Shown here one piece after another: positions 600-5,643 of a DNA stretch of 5,643 nucleotides. The position numbers and the translations under genes were made by a program. Numbering within the stretch: the stretch's first letter is position 1; every line of letters begins with the position of its first letter. Under the pieces are notes generated by a model. It did not search any database. It saw only the letters and a program-made list of their open reading frames with translations, and was not told where the DNA came from. This DNA is from an archaeon (lineage in GTDB: Archaea; Iainarchaeota; Iainarchaeia; Iainarchaeales; CSSED10-239). Where the stretch lies: assembly GCA_035387745.1 (NCBI GenBank), contig DAOOON010000009.1:28177-33819 (forward strand), in the 5' to 3' direction.

Positions 600-615
600 A
601 TATAATATAATATAT
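582..615 (+). promoter_or_regulatory. Promoter-like element upstream of the giant ORF (bacterial -35/-10 reading or archaeal TATA-box reading)
   Basis: TTTACA lies at 582-587, and two overlapping TATAAT hexamers lie at 601-606 and 606-611 (18-nt spacing from TTTACA to the second). The same TATAATATAATATAT run can be read as an archaeal TATA box about 25-30 nt upstream of a start near the RBS. This rests on motif resemblance in AT-rich DNA only. No hairpin terminator is visible after the upstream gene, so co-transcription is equally possible. Confidence 0.3.
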
Positions 616-636
616 GAAATAATATTCAAAAAATTT

Positions 637-642
637 AAGGTG
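637..642 (+). promoter_or_regulatory. Shine-Dalgarno-type ribosome-binding site (AAGGTG)
   Basis: AAGGTG is complementary to the conserved CACCUCCU 3' end of 16S rRNA. An 8-nt A-rich spacer (TAAAAAAC) separates it from ATG 651. Confidence 0.6.
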
Positions 643-650
643 TAAAAAAC

Positions 651-3600
651 ATGGGATTAAAGAAATTCTATTATTCTATAGAAAATAAATGGTATGATTT
701 TGTTGAAAAAACAGGGTTGTATAAAGTAACAGATAAGATTGACAAATTTATGCCTTCTCTTATTTTCTTTATACTTCTAATAATAATGATAATTGCAGGA
801 ATCTTTTTATTACTGCCAATGATTAAAGGATCAGGAGATATAGAATTAACTTTTAAAGTAATGGATGAATTTGATGAGCCAGTCCCATTAGCGCCAGTTT
901 TAGTTACTACTTCCGATGACGCTTATAATCTTAAAACTAATGAAAACGGCTTAACTTCAAAAATTAGATTGCCATTCAATACTAAATATTCTGTAGATAT
1001 TGATTATTTTGGAAGTGATTATGAATCATATAGCGAAGAATTTGTCGCAGAATATGACGACGAAATAGATATTTATTTGTATAGTATTTCTGAAGAAACA
1101 ACTTCTACTTATTCTTTTACACTAGTCGATAGTCAAACAAGAATGCAAATAAATAAAACAGGAACAATTGAATTTATGTGTAGTAATTTTGGAGTCTTAC
1201 CACCAAATTCATTAACATTTAGTTCTGGTAATATAACAATTATTGCAGATAGTGATTGTCAATTGAAAGCAAAATCTATAATGATTGAAGGTTATGTTAC
1301 AAGAAACGACATATCCATAACCCAAAATATAGGCACAATTGATTTTGTTTCTAGTGATCCAATTGATTTTGAAGCAGTTTATCCTGTTTATGTAACAGTT
1401 CTTGGAGAAGACGGAAGTCCTCTTACTGGAATGAGAGCAGAATTATATACAAATGGTATTGCAGCGTATGGAAAAAACTGTACAACGACAGCTGGATCTT
1501 GTACAATATTAAGTGTAGATGCTGGCAGCTATGTTTTGAAAATAACAGACACAAGAGCAGTTCCAGAATATGGATTAGTTGAGGAATCAATAATTGTTTC
1601 AGGTATTACTCCAAAAACAATAAATATGACAAGAACAATTGCAGGATATATTCAAGTAAAAGTTAAGAGAACAAATAATCAAGCAATAGAAAACGCAGAA
1701 GTAAAATTAAAATATGGAGACAATATTATTTCTAGTGGGCACACTACAAATTCAAATGGTATTGTTAATGTACCAGTTTATGATTTAAGTAGAACATATA
1801 GAGTTGTGGCTTCAAAGGAAGGATATTTGGTTGGTTCAGCAAGTAACATTACTGCTTCTGAAAGCATTCCAACAAACCCAACAGTTACAATTACTTTACA
1901 ACAAATAACTCCACAAACAACAGCGACCGTAAAAGTAACTGTATTAGATAGTGTAACAGTAAAAGGTTTTAGTCACGCGCAAGTTGTTCTTTATGATTCA
2001 ACTACCGGATTTTTAACAGATTATGATTCGCAAATTACAAATTCTGATGGCAACTGTACATTTAGAGTCGCACCAGGCACATATTATGCTAAAGCATTTA
2101 AGGGTTCTTCTGAAGGCGTAAGTGAAGAATTTGAAGTAATTATCAGTAGCTCAACCGAAGAAGTAAATGTAATTATTCCAATAGAAGTAGTTAAAACATC
2201 AATAAATATTACTGTTGTGGATCATTATGGCGAGCCAGTACCAAGAGCAAACATTTTATTATTTGATAAATATAATTCTAGAAGAGCAATTTGGGGTGGG
2301 GATTTAGCAAATATAGACGGTACATTTTTAATATCTGATTTAGTTTCAGATTCAGAAGTTTATGCCGTAATTTCAGATATTGCAGATAATCTTGGTGCTA
2401 CTCAATCAGAGTACATATATCTAAAGGCAGACACAATAAATGAGTTAAAAGTAACGCTATATCCAAAACAAACAAGTCTTCAAAAACCAGAAATTAAATT
2501 TTTAGGTTTTTTTAATGATGTTGGAGAAAAACTAAATGGTTATTTAAAATCAGGCGCAGACTACAAAGCAAGATTTTTATTATTAATACCACAAGATAGA
2601 GACGGCAGAGACGAGTTTGAAGAAGTTGGGGCGGTTGTAAGAACTGGCTCTCCAAGCTCAGTTGCAAGCCCATATATGGAAAACGATAGTATCTATATAA
2701 GATCAATAAATCTACCAAACGCAGAAGTCACAAGATATACTCAGTATAGCTCTGAAAGTGGTTATGACGGTATTGATGATGTTGACACTTTAACTGAAGG
2801 AGACGCGAAATGGGCAAAGATTTTATTTAATGAAATTTATGGTTCCAATTATGCAAATGCTTATACCATTATGGCAGACGTAAAAGTAAAAGACACAGCA
2901 GTCTATGGCGAAGAAGTTGCAATCAATTATCTAGGTTATGGTTATACAGAAAATAACAGATATGAAACAGATCCAATAGATGACACACCAAATAGTAATG
3001 ATTTAGAATATATGACACAGAAAACAGAAAACTTTAATATTGGCGAAGAACAAGCATGTTCTGATGATTTCTGTTTTAATTTAAATATTATTAATCTTGA
3101 TGAGGACTTAAGAGAAGATGTTGTTGACAATTATACTGCTTCTCCAAATCAACATTATAAATTAAGATTTGGTTTAATCAATAATGACGCAGACACGGTC
3201 TATAATGTAAATTCAAGAATGCAAATTAAAAACGAAGACAAAGGCCTAAAGTTTAGTAGCATTAAGATAACTCAACCAAATGGTCAATTATTAACAACAA
3301 CTGCAAATGAGAATACTAGCGAATATGATATTTCAATAACTCAATTTAATCCACACACAAAGATATTAGGAGAGATTGATTTTATACCAGTTCTAAAAGG
3401 CGACAGAATATTTGATTTAACTTTTGTTTCTGATCAAAGAGTAATTTTTACAAAGCAAGTAGCAATACATGTGCTTTCTGATAAAACCTTTATAGTTAAG
3501 ATTACGCCGAATGTAATACCTTCAGGAAAGAACTTCAATCTTCAAGTTGAGGTTAAAGATGCAATCACAAATATCGAAGTTGATAAGCAAGTTAATGTTA

Positions 3601-5643
3601 GAGTAAAGGACAGATTCAAAAGAGATCTTTTGGCAAACCCAGTTCCAGTAGGAGCTTTAGGTATAGCTTCAGTAAATAATATTCCAGGCCAAGAACCAAA
3701 CAACAAAGTTTATGTTTATGTTGAGGCACAAGAGTATGAGACAAGTATAAGTGAGATAAAGATAACTGACGAGATCTTTGAGATCACTCCAACAAGACTT
3801 GGAGTATCCTTAAATATTAATACTAAGAAAACAGAAAATGCAAAGTTTACTATTGAAAATAGAAGCGAAAGCGAGTTAGTAATTGATTCTATTACCTTTA
3901 TGGGTAACGACAGTGAAATAGATGCAATAGATGTACAAAGAGTAAATAATTCGTTATTAGGATTTGTAGGCACAGAGATTCCTGGTGTTGATTCAAGTGA
4001 AAAGCCTGGCGCAGATAATTATAATAATAAACAAGAGATTACTGCAAGTTTCTTTACAAGCCCTAGAGCAAGCACAATAGATTCAACAAGAAACATCAGT
4101 TCTAAATTAGTAATTAAACTAAAAGATAAATATAATAAAGAGTATATCTGGGCAACAGAACTACCAGTAACATTAACTGTTGGTTATGAAGGGTTAATGG
4201 ACGATTCTCATTGTATGACTCTTTCAGAAGAGTCTTGGGAGACAACAGTAGTTGATAAATATGTAGAAAAGCAATTTACTTTTAAGAACAACTGCGGAGT
4301 TAATTCTAAACCAGTTCCATTAAATGGGGGTCTTTCTGCTAAAGTTGAGTATGAAGGCAGTAGTCCTTTAGGGGTATTTACAGTTAATGTTGGTAACAGA
4401 TTAGTGGAGTTATCACATGGCTATTATAAGAACATCTATGACTCTGTGGATTCTGAAAAGCAACACAACGTTGTTTTAAAATATACTCCTGTTGGTAGAT
4501 TTACAGGAGACATAAAAGGAAAGATTATTTTTAGATCATTAAATGACACAGGCTCTGGTGCTCAAGAATTAATAAGCGAATATAAGTTTGTATTACATGT
4601 AATAAGCTTAAAAGACTGTTATGCGGTCTCAAAGAAAGTCTTAACAGCAAAAGATACTGGCGAGCCAGACGCCTTTGTAATTGAGAACAAAGGTTGTGGT
4701 TCAGAGATAACTTATCGTTTATCTTGTGATGACTGTACGGGCTTAGTATTAAATCCAAAAGAAAACATAGTAGTTCCAGCTACCGGATCAAGTGAAGAGA
4801 TAAAAGTTATGTCTCAGGGTGCAATGCCAGGAATTTATCTATTAAATGTATATTCAAAGGTAAGTGGAGCAAGAGGCTCAGAAAGAAATGTTGGAAAAGT
4901 AAGAGTAGAAGTAAGGCCAACGACACAATGTATTGATCTTGATAGATACGAGTATGATTTATACAGATATGAATTTTCAGACACAGGAAATCCAACAAAA
5001 GCAAAGAGTTACGATATTGGTAACATTATCAATAAATGTTACGGTCAAGACGTAAACGTTTTAGGAAAAATGAAGAAAGACGCCATCTGGAAGATGGCCC
5101 TATGGAATGGCCTAAGAGATGGTCTATTCACCTGGGGTGTCTCTTCTTTAATAAAGAATTTTGAAGAAGTTACTAAAAATATAAAATCAATAACCTCATC
5201 TGTTTTAGCTACAGTTGCTAAAGATTATACAAACTCAACACCTGCTCAAAAAACTGATGCTCTAATGAATGAATTAAATAAAATAGACAAAGAATTAGAT
5301 AAATATTTAAAATACTTAGATAATCCAAAAATTAAGTCCAAAGAAAAGACAAATATTAAGAATGCTGTAACTGACCTTGAATCGGGTCTTGGTAAATTAA
5401 AAGCAAAATTCCCAGATCAAGCAGGAATTGCGCCTGCAAATGCTTTGGTTGCAGAAATAGAAAACAAAATTACAGAAATTAAAGAAAAGCTAAGGGATAA
5501 TTCTAAAGAGCCAGAATGTTCTACAACAAAACTATGTACTGATACTACAAAAGAATGTAAAGATGGTGTTTGTGTAGCAAAGTCAGCTGAGCCAGAATGT
5601 TCTACAACAAAACTATGTACTGATACTACAAAAGAATGTAAAG
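651..5643 (+). CDS. Giant membrane-anchored multi-domain cell-surface protein (3'-truncated by the window; more than 1,664 aa; putative adhesin or S-layer-associated mega-protein)
   Basis: I translated this frame by hand. ATG 651 is the only start possible, because in-frame TAA at 636-638 closes the frame just upstream. I saw no TAA/TAG/TGA in frame up to nt 5643, and I re-verified the phase at 2520, 3000, 4200, 5100 and 5508. In DNA this AT-rich a random frame should close within a few dozen codons at most; the longest minus-strand ORF is 101 aa. The translation is protein-like throughout, with an RBS, a signal anchor, recurring beta-sandwich motifs, paired Cys and many N-x-S/T sequons. Codon bias is consistent (Arg almost always AGA; Ile ATA/ATT; Leu TTA). 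The ORF is missing from the supplied track, presumably because it has no in-window stop. Confidence 0.93.
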   Translation, partial: MGLKKFYYSIENKWYDFVEKTGLYKVTDKIDKFMPSLIFFILLIIMIIAGIFLLLPMIKGSGDIELTFKVMDEFDEPVPLAPVLVTTSDDAYNLKTNENGLTSKIRLPFNTKYSVDIDYFGSDYESYSEEFVAEYDDEIDIYLYSISEETTSTYSFTLVDSQTRMQINKTGTIEFMCSNFGVLPPNSLTFSSGNITIIADSDCQLKAKSIMIEGYVTRNDISITQNIGTIDFVSSDPIDFEAVYPVYVTVLGEDGSPLTGMRAELYTNGIAAYGKNCTTTAGSCTILSVDAGSYVLKITDTRAVPEYGLVEESIIVSGITPKTINMTRTIAGYIQVKVKRTNNQAIENAEVKLKYGDNIISSGHTTNSNGIVNVPVYDLSRTYRVVASKEGYLVGSASNITASESIPTNPTVTITLQQITPQTTATVKVTVLDSVTVKGFSHAQVVLYDSTTGFLTDYDSQITNSDGNCTFRVAPGTYYAKAFKGSSEGVSEEFEVIISSSTEEVNVIIPIEVVKTSINITVVDHYGEPVPRANILLFDKYNSRRAIWGGDLANIDGTFLISDLVSDSEVYAVISDIADNLGATQSEYIYLKADTINELKVTLYPKQTSLQKPEIKFLGFFNDVGEKLNGYLKSGADYKARFLLLIPQDRDGRDEFEEVGAVVRTGSPSSVASPYMENDSIYIRSINLPNAEVTRYTQYSSESGYDGIDDVDTLTEGDAKWAKILFNEIYGSNYANAYTIMADVKVKDTAVYGEEVAINYLGYGYTENNRYETDPIDDTPNSNDLEYMTQKTENFNIGEEQACSDDFCFNLNIINLDEDLREDVVDNYTASPNQHYKLRFGLINNDADTVYNVNSRMQIKNEDKGLKFSSIKITQPNGQLLTTTANENTSEYDISITQFNPHTKILGEIDFIPVLKGDRIFDLTFVSDQRVIFTKQVAIHVLSDKTFIVKITPNVIPSGKNFNLQVEVKDAITNIEVDKQVNVRVKDRFKRDLLANPVPVGALGIASVNNIPGQEPNNKVYVYVEAQEYETSISEIKITDEIFEITPTRLGVSLNINTKKTENAKFTIENRSESELVIDSITFMGNDSEIDAIDVQRVNNSLLGFVGTEIPGVDSSEKPGADNYNNKQEITASFFTSPRASTIDSTRNISSKLVIKLKDKYNKEYIWATELPVTLTVGYEGLMDDSHCMTLSEESWETTVVDKYVEKQFTFKNNCGVNSKPVPLNGGLSAKVEYEGSSPLGVFTVNVGNRLVELSHGYYKNIYDSVDSEKQHNVVLKYTPVGRFTGDIKGKIIFRSLNDTGSGAQELISEYKFVLHVISLKDCYAVSKKVLTAKDTGEPDAFVIENKGCGSEITYRLSCDDCTGLVLNPKENIVVPATGSSEEIKVMSQGAMPGIYLLNVYSKVSGARGSERNVGKVRVEVRPTTQCIDLDRYEYDLYRYEFSDTGNPTKAKSYDIGNIINKCYGQDVNVLGKMKKDAIWKMALWNGLRDGLFTWGVSSLIKNFEEVTKNIKSITSSVLATVAKDYTNSTPAQKTDALMNELNKIDKELDKYLKYLDNPKIKSKEKTNIKNAVTDLESGLGKLKAKFPDQAGIAPANALVAEIENKITEIKEKLRDNSKEPECSTTKLCTDTTKECKDGVCVAKSAEPECSTTKLCTDTTKECK
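753..824 (+). other. N-terminal transmembrane signal anchor of the giant protein
   Basis: Residues 35-58 (PSLIFFILLIIMIIAGIFLLLPMI) form an uninterrupted hydrophobic stretch. A 34-aa charged, aromatic N-terminal segment precedes it (MGLKKFYYSIENKWYDFVEKTGLYKVTDKIDKFM). That n-region is too long for a classical cleavable Sec signal peptide. It therefore looks like a type-II-style anchor with the bulk of the protein outside the cell. Confidence 0.75.
837..2462 (+). repeat. Array of about six diverged ~85-aa transthyretin/CarboxypepD_reg-like (PEGA-like) beta-sandwich modules (protein-level repeats only)
   Basis: A pattern recurs about every 85-90 aa: h-x-h-x-V-x-D ... G-x-P-h ... A-x-V-x-L ... 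T-(N/D)-x-(N/D)-G-x-h-x-h ... G-x-Y-x-h-x-h ... G-Y/F. Examples are IELTFKVMDEFDEPVPLAPVLV..NENGLTS; VYVTVLGEDGSPLTGMRAELY..AGSCTILSVDAGSYVLKI; IQVKVKRTNNQAIENAEVKLKY..NSNGIVNVPVYDLSRTYRVVASKEGY; VKVTVLDSVTVKGFSHAQVVLYD..NSDGNCTFRVAPGTYYAKAFK; INITVVDHYGEPVPRANILLFD..NIDGTFLISDLVSDSEVYAVISD. Module 2 (aa 154-236) is the least canonical. The family assignment comes from motif memory, not from a search. Confidence 0.55.
3786..4919 (+). other. Three consecutive Ig-like beta-sandwich modules with an F-x-(I/F)-x-N strand (CARDB/ASH/PapD-like pattern)
   Basis: Approximate modules are 3786-4190, 4212-4607 and 4617-4919. Each has an early strand of the form AKFTIENRSESELVI, KQFTFKNNCGVNSKPV or DAFVIENKGCGSEITY. 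Each ends in an alternating hydrophobic strand (VTLTVGY, KFVLHVIS, VRVEVRP). Cysteines are placed at module boundaries (C1188, C1215, C1323, C1349, C1359, C1362, C1427). Boundaries are approximate. Confidence 0.45.
5070..5150 (+). other. Trp-rich amphipathic/hydrophobic segment
   Basis: Residues 1474-1500 read MKKDAIWKMALWNGLRDGLFTWGVSSL, with 3 Trp in 17 residues and hydrophobic runs interrupted by R and D. It is not a clean transmembrane helix and looks more like an interfacial or membrane-interacting helix. Confidence 0.35.
5151..5504 (+). other. Predicted alpha-helical (coiled-coil-like) stalk
   Basis: Residues 1501-1618 are K/E/L/N-rich with heptad-like stretches (TDALMNELNKIDKELDKYLKYL, AVTDLESGLGKLKAKF, ALVAEIENKITEIKEKLRD). 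This contrasts sharply with the beta-type composition of the preceding ~1,400 aa. Confidence 0.45.
5508..5643 (+). repeat. Nucleotide-perfect in-frame 81-bp tandem repeat encoding a 27-aa four-Cys module (array truncated by the window end)
   Basis: nt 5508-5562 and nt 5589-5643 are identical at 55 of 55 positions (GAGCCAGAATGTTCTACAACAAAACTATGTACTGATACTACAAAAGAATGTAAAG). The period is 81 nt, or 27 codons, and 5508 is a first codon position of the giant ORF. The unit is EPECSTTKLCTDTTKECKDGVCVAKSA. Confidence 0.95.

Follow-up and report, generated by a model that had tools for sequence, protein, structure and literature searches.

A predicted membrane-anchored giant surface protein of Iainarchaeota with a conserved stalk and a variable tip

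What kind of protein is encoded by a reading frame that fills most of a contig and leaves it without meeting a stop codon, and what could so large a molecule do for an archaeal cell? This is the question raised by a stretch of 5,643 nucleotides (hereafter, the window) from an archaeon of the Iainarchaeota (GTDB lineage Iainarchaeia; Iainarchaeales; CSSED10-239), located in assembly GCA_035387745.1, contig DAOOON010000009.1, positions 28,177 to 33,819 of the forward strand. Its main content is a single gene. The product is predicted, from its sequence, to be a giant surface protein anchored in the membrane in type II (N-in, C-out) orientation, and it belongs to one of three giant families encoded together in a conserved gene cluster. 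As to its role, it is probably a fibrillar, adhesin-like part of a surface apparatus made of several proteins, with a long stalk and a variable tip. The steps that lead to this answer, and the readings that compete with it, are given below.

The starting point is the frame itself. Frame 3 of the forward strand, translated from position 651 to 5643, yields 1,664 sense codons and zero stops; at 32.5% GC, with a stop probability of 0.084 per codon, an open run of this length would arise by chance with a probability of ~3e-64. An earlier, sequence-only reading of the window had claimed this giant frame on the basis of a hand translation and had raised the worry of an in-frame stop that had been missed; the computed translation contains none. 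That reading had also remarked that the frame was absent from the mechanical list of open reading frames, and the reason is trivial: the frame exits the window edge. An identical product of 1,664 amino acids (aa) is present at NCBI under the name "hypothetical protein PLK55_02245, partial [archaeon]". The start had been called unambiguous, and it is as described: an in-frame TAA at 636-638, the hexamer AAGGTG at 637-642, and the ATG at 651. The N-terminal residues MGLKK.YY are common to all orthologues, and because all of them begin in this way, the start at position 651 is confirmed.

The opposite end is incomplete, as had been suspected. The window is the entire 5,643-bp ENA contig ERZ761564 NODE_17577, and it closes with a perfect 55-nt direct repeat, in which 5508-5562 equals 5589-5643 at a spacing of 81 nt, that is, 27 aa. 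Since the contig ends within a perfect tandem repeat with an 81-nt period, the truncation of the gene is an assembly break, and the true gene is larger: roughly, positions 651-5643 hold the first 85-95% of it. The tail repeats also carry runs of N in three orthologous genes of public metagenome-assembled genomes (loci L003, L005, and L006; the labels L002-L020 denote orthologous or related genome loci). These N runs, together with the contig break, imply that the 3' ends of such genes are systematically unassembled in short-read data and that their annotated lengths are too low.

Where does this gene belong? Fifteen full-length orthologue clusters and one distant relative came out of a word-indexed search among 5.8 billion proteins; the members of these clusters have 1,516-1,953 aa, share 40-83% identity with the query, and span it from aa 1 to ~1,500. 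For the orthologues as a whole, identity runs from 38 to 88%. When one genome per GTDB species was scanned, 17 loci were found, all of them in Iainarchaeota/Diapherotrites or in unclassified archaeal metagenome-assembled genomes, including the complete chromosome of Ca. Forterrea multitransposorum (CP045477.1) and a 671-kb contig of Ca. Iainarchaeum. Contigs of 100-670 kb also carry the gene in this context, and no relatives occur among IMG/VR viral contigs, INPHARED phages, or PLSDB plasmids. As the loci all lie in such archaeal genomes and none in the viral and plasmid collections, the gene is chromosomal and comes from a DPANN archaeon. The sequence-only reading had named this group as one possible source, and had proposed a search for full-length homologues to settle the lineage; the search did so.

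A related question is which parts of the protein are kept by selection and which are free to change. Against the closest relatives, with 84-90% amino-acid identity in the body, the ratio of nonsynonymous to synonymous substitution rates (dN/dS) is 0.08-0.15 for the body and 0.03-0.11 for the head together with the transmembrane (TM) segment. Judged by these ratios, purifying selection on the body is strong (dN/dS ~0.1). From about aa 1506 on, the picture is another: identity with L002 and L003 is 12-20% and the sequences are no longer alignable, and only L006 keeps the same tail design, with 52% identity and a dN/dS of 0.73. Because the body is conserved and the tails differ even among close relatives, the anchor and the stalk are regarded as fixed and the membrane-distal tip as exchangeable.

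The most conserved part of all is the short N-terminal head. In the alignment of 15 orthologue sequences, which also defines the invariant residues named further on, 18 residues within aa 1-36 do not change, and the head has a net charge of +2. The head recurs in the paralogue families A, B, and C, of which B is the family of the query gene. Across the wider superfamily described below, most of the ~300 clusters have this head of ~40 aa, with the pattern YY.LEDKYY..LD...IPVYKIVDPIDK..PSF and a TM segment after it. The query itself carries the more relaxed motif YY.LE.KYY..[LV][DE]...YK[IV].D.ID...PSF directly before one TM segment, and the consensus across the wider superfamily reads lKd.YyslEDKYY.fLDkld.kiPvYKivDpIDkviPSF. 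A Pfam scan of the head matched no model and gave only sub-threshold noise driven by the TM segment (ODV-E18, DUF1523).

The segment after the head stands out clearly in hydropathy: its peak, at aa 37-55, has a Kyte-Doolittle value of 3.47 over 19 residues, and the runner-up segment of the protein has 1.55. The view that a 34-aa cytoplasmic head precedes one hydrophobic anchor was therefore correct. The charge is +2 before this segment and -4 over the 22 residues after it; given this positive-inside distribution, an N-in/C-out orientation is predicted. Moreover, the hydrophobic segment is ~22-24 residues long and lacks a conserved cleavage site, so that it is probably an uncleaved anchor and not a cleaved signal peptide.

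Beyond the anchor, the body consists of ~1,370 aa of diverged beta-sandwich modules, which pass from CarboxypepD_reg-like to macroglobulin-like and then to ASH/PapD-like types. The modules of aa 62-606, each of ~85-90 aa, were assigned from Pfam and from hidden Markov models (HMMs) of the modules; the AlphaFold2 (AF2) models start at aa 600. The Pfam family PF13620 (CarboxypepD_reg) matches three stretches with 58.8 bits against a cut-off of 32.3 (E 6.9e-16), and Big_1 and MG4 match below threshold. Only weak hits had been foreseen: the CarboxypepD_reg family was named rightly, but its score lies above the gathering threshold. The HMMs of the individual modules cross-match each other only faintly, from which it follows that the modules are old and diverged, and not recent repeats.

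The next part, the core, had been described as an orphan acidic region. This description has to be replaced: the region is made of beta-sandwiches, and no other part of a large superfamily is conserved as widely. The AF2 model of aa 600-1190 (madeabfa344fb) is all-beta, with a predicted local distance difference test score (pLDDT) of 79.5. Its Foldseek matches are the immunoglobulin (Ig)-like part of PrgB, bacterial alpha-2-macroglobulin, and the macroglobulin (MG) arrays of complement C3, with E values from 1e-15 to 1e-9, followed by antigen I/II (AgI/II) and an RTX adhesin as further neighbors. Since the TM-scores are low (<0.2), these matches denote generic Ig arrays. A second AF2 model, with a pLDDT of 71, contains two confident beta-sandwiches at aa 1180-1424, and here Foldseek pointed to ASH-domain proteins of the ciliary central pair, the SPD-2 domain of CEP192, the CfaB pilin of a chaperone-usher system, and intimin D00-D0; the SbsB S-layer protein is among the weaker matches. 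With CarboxypepD_reg above threshold at one end and an all-beta prediction for aa 600-1424 at the other, the modular beta-sandwich body proposed at the outset is well founded.

The paired cysteines noticed in the same reading are real as well. Six pairs are invariant across the 15 orthologues (177/203, 803/808, 1188/1215, 1323/1349, 1359/1362, and 1427/1463), and such ectodomain pairs would fit an extracytoplasmic location. The N-x-S/T sequons, which had been offered as a further sign of glycosylation and of this location, carry no such message: there are 16 of them, 17.9 are expected from composition, and there is no enrichment. No catalytic, S-layer, protease, or nuclease domain was detected with Pfam, NCBIfam, and PHROGs, and a PDB sequence search with the query gave zero matches. 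On these comparisons, the sole above-threshold family assignment is the generic CarboxypepD_reg, and the protein falls into no characterized sequence family.

The last conserved segment, aa 1426-1505, opens with a loop between the invariant C1427 and C1463 (CIDLDRYE...NIINKCYGQ) and continues with a helix that contains W1480, W1485, and W1495; by hydropathy, this helix is not TM-like. The combination of Cys loop and Trp helix is specific to the narrow orthogroup: of the 119 full-length representatives of the superfamily, just 4 have it. For aa ~1476-1616, AF2 predicts four or five helices of 14-33 residues, and for the Cys-rich repeats at aa 1620-1664 it predicts small beta-hairpins. The Trp-containing helix, the helical stretch, and the Cys-rich repeats that had been announced after the body are thus all present; the supposed coiled coil is predicted as several helices instead of one long one. 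The tails differ in every orthologue, being built from helical segments, linkers rich in Pro, Thr, and Glu, and tandem Cys-rich repeats of ~24-28 aa. Similar Cys repeats, often broken by N runs, exist in L005, L006, and L007.

Does the gene act alone? Its surroundings suggest company. The same-strand gene order, with spacers of tens of bases, recurs in nine sufficiently long loci, and in each of them families A, B, and C are all retained. The query aligns with family A at 23% identity over 1,351 collinear residues (E 8e-44), and with family C at 20% identity over 1,403 residues (E 4e-19). By these alignments, the three families are collinear paralogues that share one plan of head, TM segment, and stalk. 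The cluster measures ~39 kb in L002, the sole locus with known gene sizes; set against relatives with genomes or contigs of 0.67-0.84 Mb (L011, L012), and hence across organisms, it would correspond to ~5% of a genome.

How far does this kind of protein reach? An exhaustive HMMER search of 1.84 billion representative proteins was performed with a profile of aa 600-1190 built from the orthogroup of the query, which therefore matches it by construction. Counted at 50% identity, 312 clusters matched at E<=1e-3, 288 at E<=1e-10, and 212 at E<=1e-30. The orthogroup itself fills the first eight places (E<1e-148), and most of the others are giants with a length of 2,300-3,250 aa; in these, the core match always lies at ~aa 600-1,150. 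An HMM of the head only, with the TM segment removed, recognizes 113 of the 128 superfamily representatives that have an N-terminal TM segment, and 65 of the 119 full-length ones have the C-x4-FCF motif in their core. In databases, the members are called "hypothetical" or "carboxypeptidase regulatory-like domain-containing", and they are attributed to Ca. Diapherotrites, Ca. Micrarchaeota, or simply "archaeon". A search of the 5.8-billion-protein index with the head alignment was uninformative: it returned four short fragments only and missed known members. The impression that the architecture was not a described one holds in the sense that no characterized homologue exists (no PDB match, uninformative names), but the architecture is not unique, as ~300 related clusters share it.

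How might such a protein work? The cytoplasmic head and the TM segment would hold the giant at the membrane in N-in/C-out orientation. Then ~13 beta-sandwich modules, individually conserved, mutually diverged, and in some cases stapled by disulfides, would make a long and semi-rigid stalk, of ~50 nm if extended, an estimate from the module count. At its far end would be the family-specific disulfide loop with the amphipathic helix, and outermost the fast-changing tail, with its helical region and Cys-knot-like 27-aa repeats. The stalk may thus project the variable tip from the cell, and the tip may mediate contact with partner cells or surfaces; attachment to a host, in particular, is conceivable from the sequence. 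The conserved head would probably be a shared cytoplasmic handle by which these very large proteins are targeted, inserted, or anchored. Two features of fibrillar adhesins are present, namely, the tandem beta-sandwich stalk and a predicted N-terminal signal-anchor with positive-inside charge. A bolder idea, and a rather unlikely one, is that the head and TM segment are a dedicated sorting or anchoring signal that recruits the three giants, the pilin-like protein, and the secreted neighbors into one heteromeric surface organelle, specific to DPANN archaea of the Iainarchaeota/Micrarchaeota type. If so, the organelle would be an apparatus for attachment or of the envelope of a kind not yet described in archaea, and its swappable tip would set partner specificity.

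Several points weigh against the adhesin-like role. No adhesive or ligand-binding domain was recognized with Pfam and NCBIfam in the tail of the truncated gene, and the distal element (aa 1427-1505) is modeled with a pLDDT of ~35 despite its strong conservation. The 10 kb to each side of the gene contain no ATPase for secretion or for a pilus. The collinear modules conserved across three paralogues would suit a structural lattice or a heteromer no less well than a mere spacer. Finally, some authors have argued that Diapherotrites are free-living (PMC5905446), which weakens the idea of host attachment.

The lattice leads to the strongest competitor, which is possible although clearly less probable than an adhesin-like component: A, B, and C would co-assemble through their equally long stalks into an S-layer-like canopy or into membrane-anchored pillars, the variable tails would be the exposed outer face, and the giants would not be individual adhesins. 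The co-retention of the three families in every sufficiently long locus, collinear over ~1,350-1,400 aa, speaks for such an envelope scaffold, as do the conservation of each stalk module (dN/dS ~0.1), the acidity of the protein (isoelectric point 4.8), the share of a 0.67-0.84-Mb genome that a ~39-kb cluster would occupy, and the appearance of SbsB among the weaker Foldseek matches. Yet Pfam and NCBIfam gave no S-layer family (PF05123, TIGR01564, TIGR01567) at E<=1. S-layer lattice proteins typically lack hypervariable repeat-rich tips and many cysteines, and the query, with its tip and its 22 cysteines, is atypical in both respects. Furthermore, the S-layer protein demonstrated by experiment in Micrarchaeota is a different one, of 101 kDa and of the PF05123 type (10.1101/2021.04.28.441871). 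The pilin-like neighbor suggests something else: it could deliver or hold the giant, which would then be an accessory or a tip component of a surface filament, either type IV pilus-like or another dedicated one. This is improbable. A class III-like protein of 550-600 aa does occur two genes upstream in all nine loci, with a Pfam N_methyl match (E 0.016), but this match is under the Pfam cut-off, and genes for a pilus ATPase, a TadC-type platform, or a prepilin peptidase are missing from the 10 kb to either side; besides, the query has no class III signal of its own, as a 34-aa head precedes its TM segment and no [KR]G site adjoins it.

Two further readings have much less to recommend them. The Foldseek resemblance to alpha-2-macroglobulin of E. 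coli and Salmonella and to the MG arrays of complement C3 (E 1e-12 to 1e-10), the sub-threshold MG4 and A2M_recep matches in Pfam, the comparable size (~1,700-1,950 aa), and the membrane anchoring could denote an alpha-2-macroglobulin-like protease trap. A regular-expression search of the whole protein, however, found no C-x-E-Q thioester motif, and there is no helical thioester domain: AF2 predicts only beta structure for aa 600-1424 and places helices only after aa 1476, and aa 62-606, for which there is no model, contain only CarboxypepD_reg-type units of ~85-90 aa according to Pfam and the module HMMs. The TM-scores below 0.2 are those of generic Ig arrays. As neither the motif nor the domain was found, an alpha-2-macroglobulin identity was rejected, and a trap of this kind is very unlikely. 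The last reading is that the frame belongs to a virus, a plasmid, or another extrachromosomal element, as the sequence-only reading had allowed, or that it is chimeric or mis-assembled, a doubt that a short 5.6-kb contig ending in a repeat may well arouse. Against this, a complete chromosome and contigs of 100-670 kb carry the same gene and context, the orthologues of independent assemblies are collinear over ~1,500 aa, and IMG/VR, INPHARED, and PLSDB hold no relatives. A viral, plasmid, or extrachromosomal origin was consequently rejected, and to this group of explanations we give almost no credence. The preferred answer is the adhesin-like component of a surface apparatus.

The features of the window and the genes of the cluster are collected in Table 1.

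Table 1. Features of the window and order of the conserved cluster (positions are those of the window, unless L002 is named)
Feature	Position	Strand	Details and basis
Giant open reading frame (family B)	651..5643	+	1,664 codons, 3'-truncated; product ~185 kDa so far, isoelectric point 4.8
Cytoplasmic head, aa 1-34	651..752	+	MGLKKFYYSIENKWYDFVEKTGLYKVTDKIDKFM; best-conserved segment, superfamily-defining
Single transmembrane signal-anchor (predicted), aa 35-58	753..824	+	Hydropathy, flanking charges
Six diverged transthyretin-like (CarboxypepD_reg-type) modules, aa 62-606	834..2468	+	Pfam, module HMMs
Superfamily core, aa 607-1040	2469..3770	+	Beta-sandwich modules and inserts; invariant C803-x4-C808 (ACSDDFCF); AF2, Foldseek, profile search
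Three ASH/PapD-like Ig modules, aa 1041-1425	3771..4925	+	Invariant Cys pairs 1188/1215, 1323/1349, 1359/1362; AF2, Foldseek, alignment
Orthogroup-specific element, aa 1426-1505	4926..5165	+	Cys1427...Cys1463 loop (CIDLDRYEYDLYRYE...NIINKCYGQ) and amphipathic Trp-containing helix; invariant residues
Variable helical region, aa 1506-1619	5166..5507	+	Four helices of ~23-33 residues; AF2 secondary structure
27-aa Cys-rich tandem repeats	5508..5643	+	EPECSTTKLCTDTTKECKDGVCVAKSA; 1.7 copies to contig end; perfect 55-nt direct repeat, 81-nt spacing
3' end of family A giant, 198 aa	3..599	+	Stop TAG 597-599; frame open to left window edge
A/T-rich intergenic spacer, 51 nt	600..650	+	ATATAATATAATATA at 600-614; GGTG 639-642, 8 nt before ATG; sequence and Tandem Repeats Finder
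Cluster gene 1, first giant (its end)		same strand	3,077 aa in L002
Cluster gene 2, pilin-like protein of 550-600 aa	L002 929-2725	same strand	Two genes upstream of family B
Cluster gene 3, family A giant of 2,300-2,560 aa	L002 2884-9948	same strand	2,354 aa in L002
Cluster gene 4, family B (query gene)		same strand
Cluster gene 5, ~970-aa protein		same strand	Sec signal
Cluster gene 6, variable secreted proteins		same strand	775 and 638 aa in closest relatives
Cluster gene 7, family C giant of >2,000 aa		same strand	2,490 aa in L002

The neighbors deserve some words of their own. At the left edge of the window, the product of frame 3-599 shares 52% identity with the last 216 aa of the family A protein of L002 (E 1e-56). 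Its last ~130 aa are Gly/Asn-rich beta-strand repeats (GGNLTLDL..SGTVKFESGN..ISGNTVQLNISG..) with a beta-helix-like look, and its sole match is the NCBIfam model LiaG, sub-threshold at E 0.065. At the corresponding junction, L002 has a spacer of 52 nt. The 51-nt spacer of the window hints at co-transcription as in an operon, and it may include an internal TATA-like element; GGTG at 639-642 may act as a ribosome-binding-like motif and the spacer as a promoter.

The pilin-like gene has a constant signature: the N-terminus [KR]G-F-[TN]-L-F-T-A and a hydrophobic stretch are found in nine of nine loci (L002, L005, L008, L009, L011, L012, L013, L016, and L018), and its type is class III, type-IV-pilin-like. 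A Pfam scan of the neighbors of 598, 978, 775, and 638 aa gave no matches, and the Pfam matches in the cluster are confined to the giants (CarboxypepD_reg, MG4, SpaA, and PEGA). At the C-terminus of the first cluster giant, a CHAP/NlpC-like hydrolase was considered and dismissed, as no match reached E<=0.01 and a lax scan brought up nothing but noise.

The secreted proteins between families B and C share parts with the giants. The 775-aa protein (L002 18925-21252) is a free-standing copy of a ~600-aa module of family A (aa 1610-2179), and it matches the C-terminal third of family A with 31% identity over 605 aa (E 1e-69). As one protein copies a module of the other, modules are exchanged within the cluster. 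In addition, a Cys-rich C-terminal module, W.CVC...G....V.A.C......L.LY, is shared by the family B tails of L002, L003, and L005 and by the 638-aa neighbor (L002 21270-23186), whose C-terminus has 32% identity over 114 aa with the family B tail of L002 and L003 (E 1e-9). This shared module may serve in docking or binding.

The cluster also varies from place to place. In L016, positions 14911-19742 hold two extra genes (279 and 1,325 aa, with N-terminal hydrophobic segments) between family B and the ~1,000-aa protein with the Sec signal; as these genes are inserted, the content of the cluster is not wholly fixed. A distant version is found in L020 (ENA ERZ2647912 NODE_560, 1-24239). Its pilin-like gene has 471 aa as called, with a start that is possibly mis-called, and its A-like giant is apparently split into 1,412 and 972 aa, of which the former matches family A and the latter nothing. 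The B-like giant of L020 has >2,000 aa and ~25% identity to family B over ~1,570 aa, and the upstream genes resemble pieces of another giant. In the other direction, a search beyond family C from the fragment P0043 led only to an error-ridden contig of 0.7x coverage.

Why should these proteins matter? DPANN archaea are thought to depend on contact, their surface molecules are scarcely known, and a family of giants with ~300 clusters merits attention for this reason. The head can be used as an HMM to find further members, and the conserved cluster, the three collinear paralogues, and the hypervariable repeat-rich tip are handles for annotation and experiment. New questions come with them: (i) What does the head bind? 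(ii) Do the paralogues co-assemble? (iii) Does the tip determine partner specificity? The folds are ordinary and the role is a prediction, but the family is an entry point into the surface biology of DPANN archaea. Literature searches on Forterrea, the Micrarchaeota S-layer, DPANN giant proteins, and archaeal dark matter found no description of the family, the head, or the cluster; a general mention exists of large surface proteins in DPANN symbionts, some of them rich in Cys (PMC6792436).

It remains to place the giants among known systems. The bacterial fibrillar adhesins (PrgB, antigen I/II, RTX adhesins, intimin) are alike in having a beta-sandwich stalk with a membrane or cell-wall anchor on one side and a variable part opposite to it, and they are among the Foldseek matches. 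There is no sequence kinship with them, identities in the structural alignments being 8-16%, and the differences are many: the anchor of the archaeal giant is an N-terminal signal-anchor with a conserved head, and not an LPXTG motif, a beta-barrel, or type I secretion system retention; its stalk modules are old and individually conserved, and not recent and near-identical repeats; no adhesive domain is recognized; and the host is an archaeon. The bacterial alpha-2-macroglobulins (ECAM) and complement C3 have similar MG-like arrays, a similar length, and membrane attachment, but differ by the thioester motif and domain, not found here, and by TM-scores below 0.2. With the hydin-type central-pair proteins and the SPD-2 domain of CEP192, which are eukaryotic and cytoplasmic, only the fold of aa 1041-1425 is shared.

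Other likenesses concern the design more than the fold. Some very large bacterial surface proteins begin with conserved N-terminal extensions, such as ESPR (in autotransporters and two-partner secretion proteins), YSIRK-G/S, and KxYKxGKxW. The archaeal head is a functional analogue at most: it shares with them a ~25-40-aa extension before a hydrophobic segment and the restriction to giant surface proteins, with no sequence similarity and no Pfam match. The SPEARE giants of Nanohaloarchaeota combine protease, adhesion, and restriction-endonuclease domains and have been proposed to act in host interaction; they too are giant DPANN proteins, but none of these domains, the serine protease and the restriction endonuclease included, was detected here with Pfam and NCBIfam. 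Among archaeal envelope proteins, SlaA/SlaB of Sulfolobales and tetrabrachion of Staphylothermus are large, acidic, membrane-anchored, and Ig-rich, with a helical segment and perhaps several subunits. The query resembles these proteins, as well as SLP_Mh, the unrelated 101-kDa PF05123 S-layer protein experimentally shown in Micrarchaeota (10.1101/2021.04.28.441871), in being a large, acidic, anchored, and Ig-rich extracellular protein with a helical segment; it differs in having no S-layer family match, an N-terminal anchor, and a hypervariable Cys-rich tip. In genome organization, there is a bacterial parallel: in Apilactobacillus kunkeei, five consecutive giants (Giant1-5) take up ~6% of a 1.5-Mb genome (PMC12863079), and there, too, several giant surface-protein genes stand in a row and fill ~5-6% of a small genome. 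Seen against all these systems, the building blocks of the archaeal giants are ordinary Ig-like modules, and what is distinctive is the way in which they are used: a conserved head and anchor, a collinear triad of paralogues in a conserved cluster, and a swappable tip.

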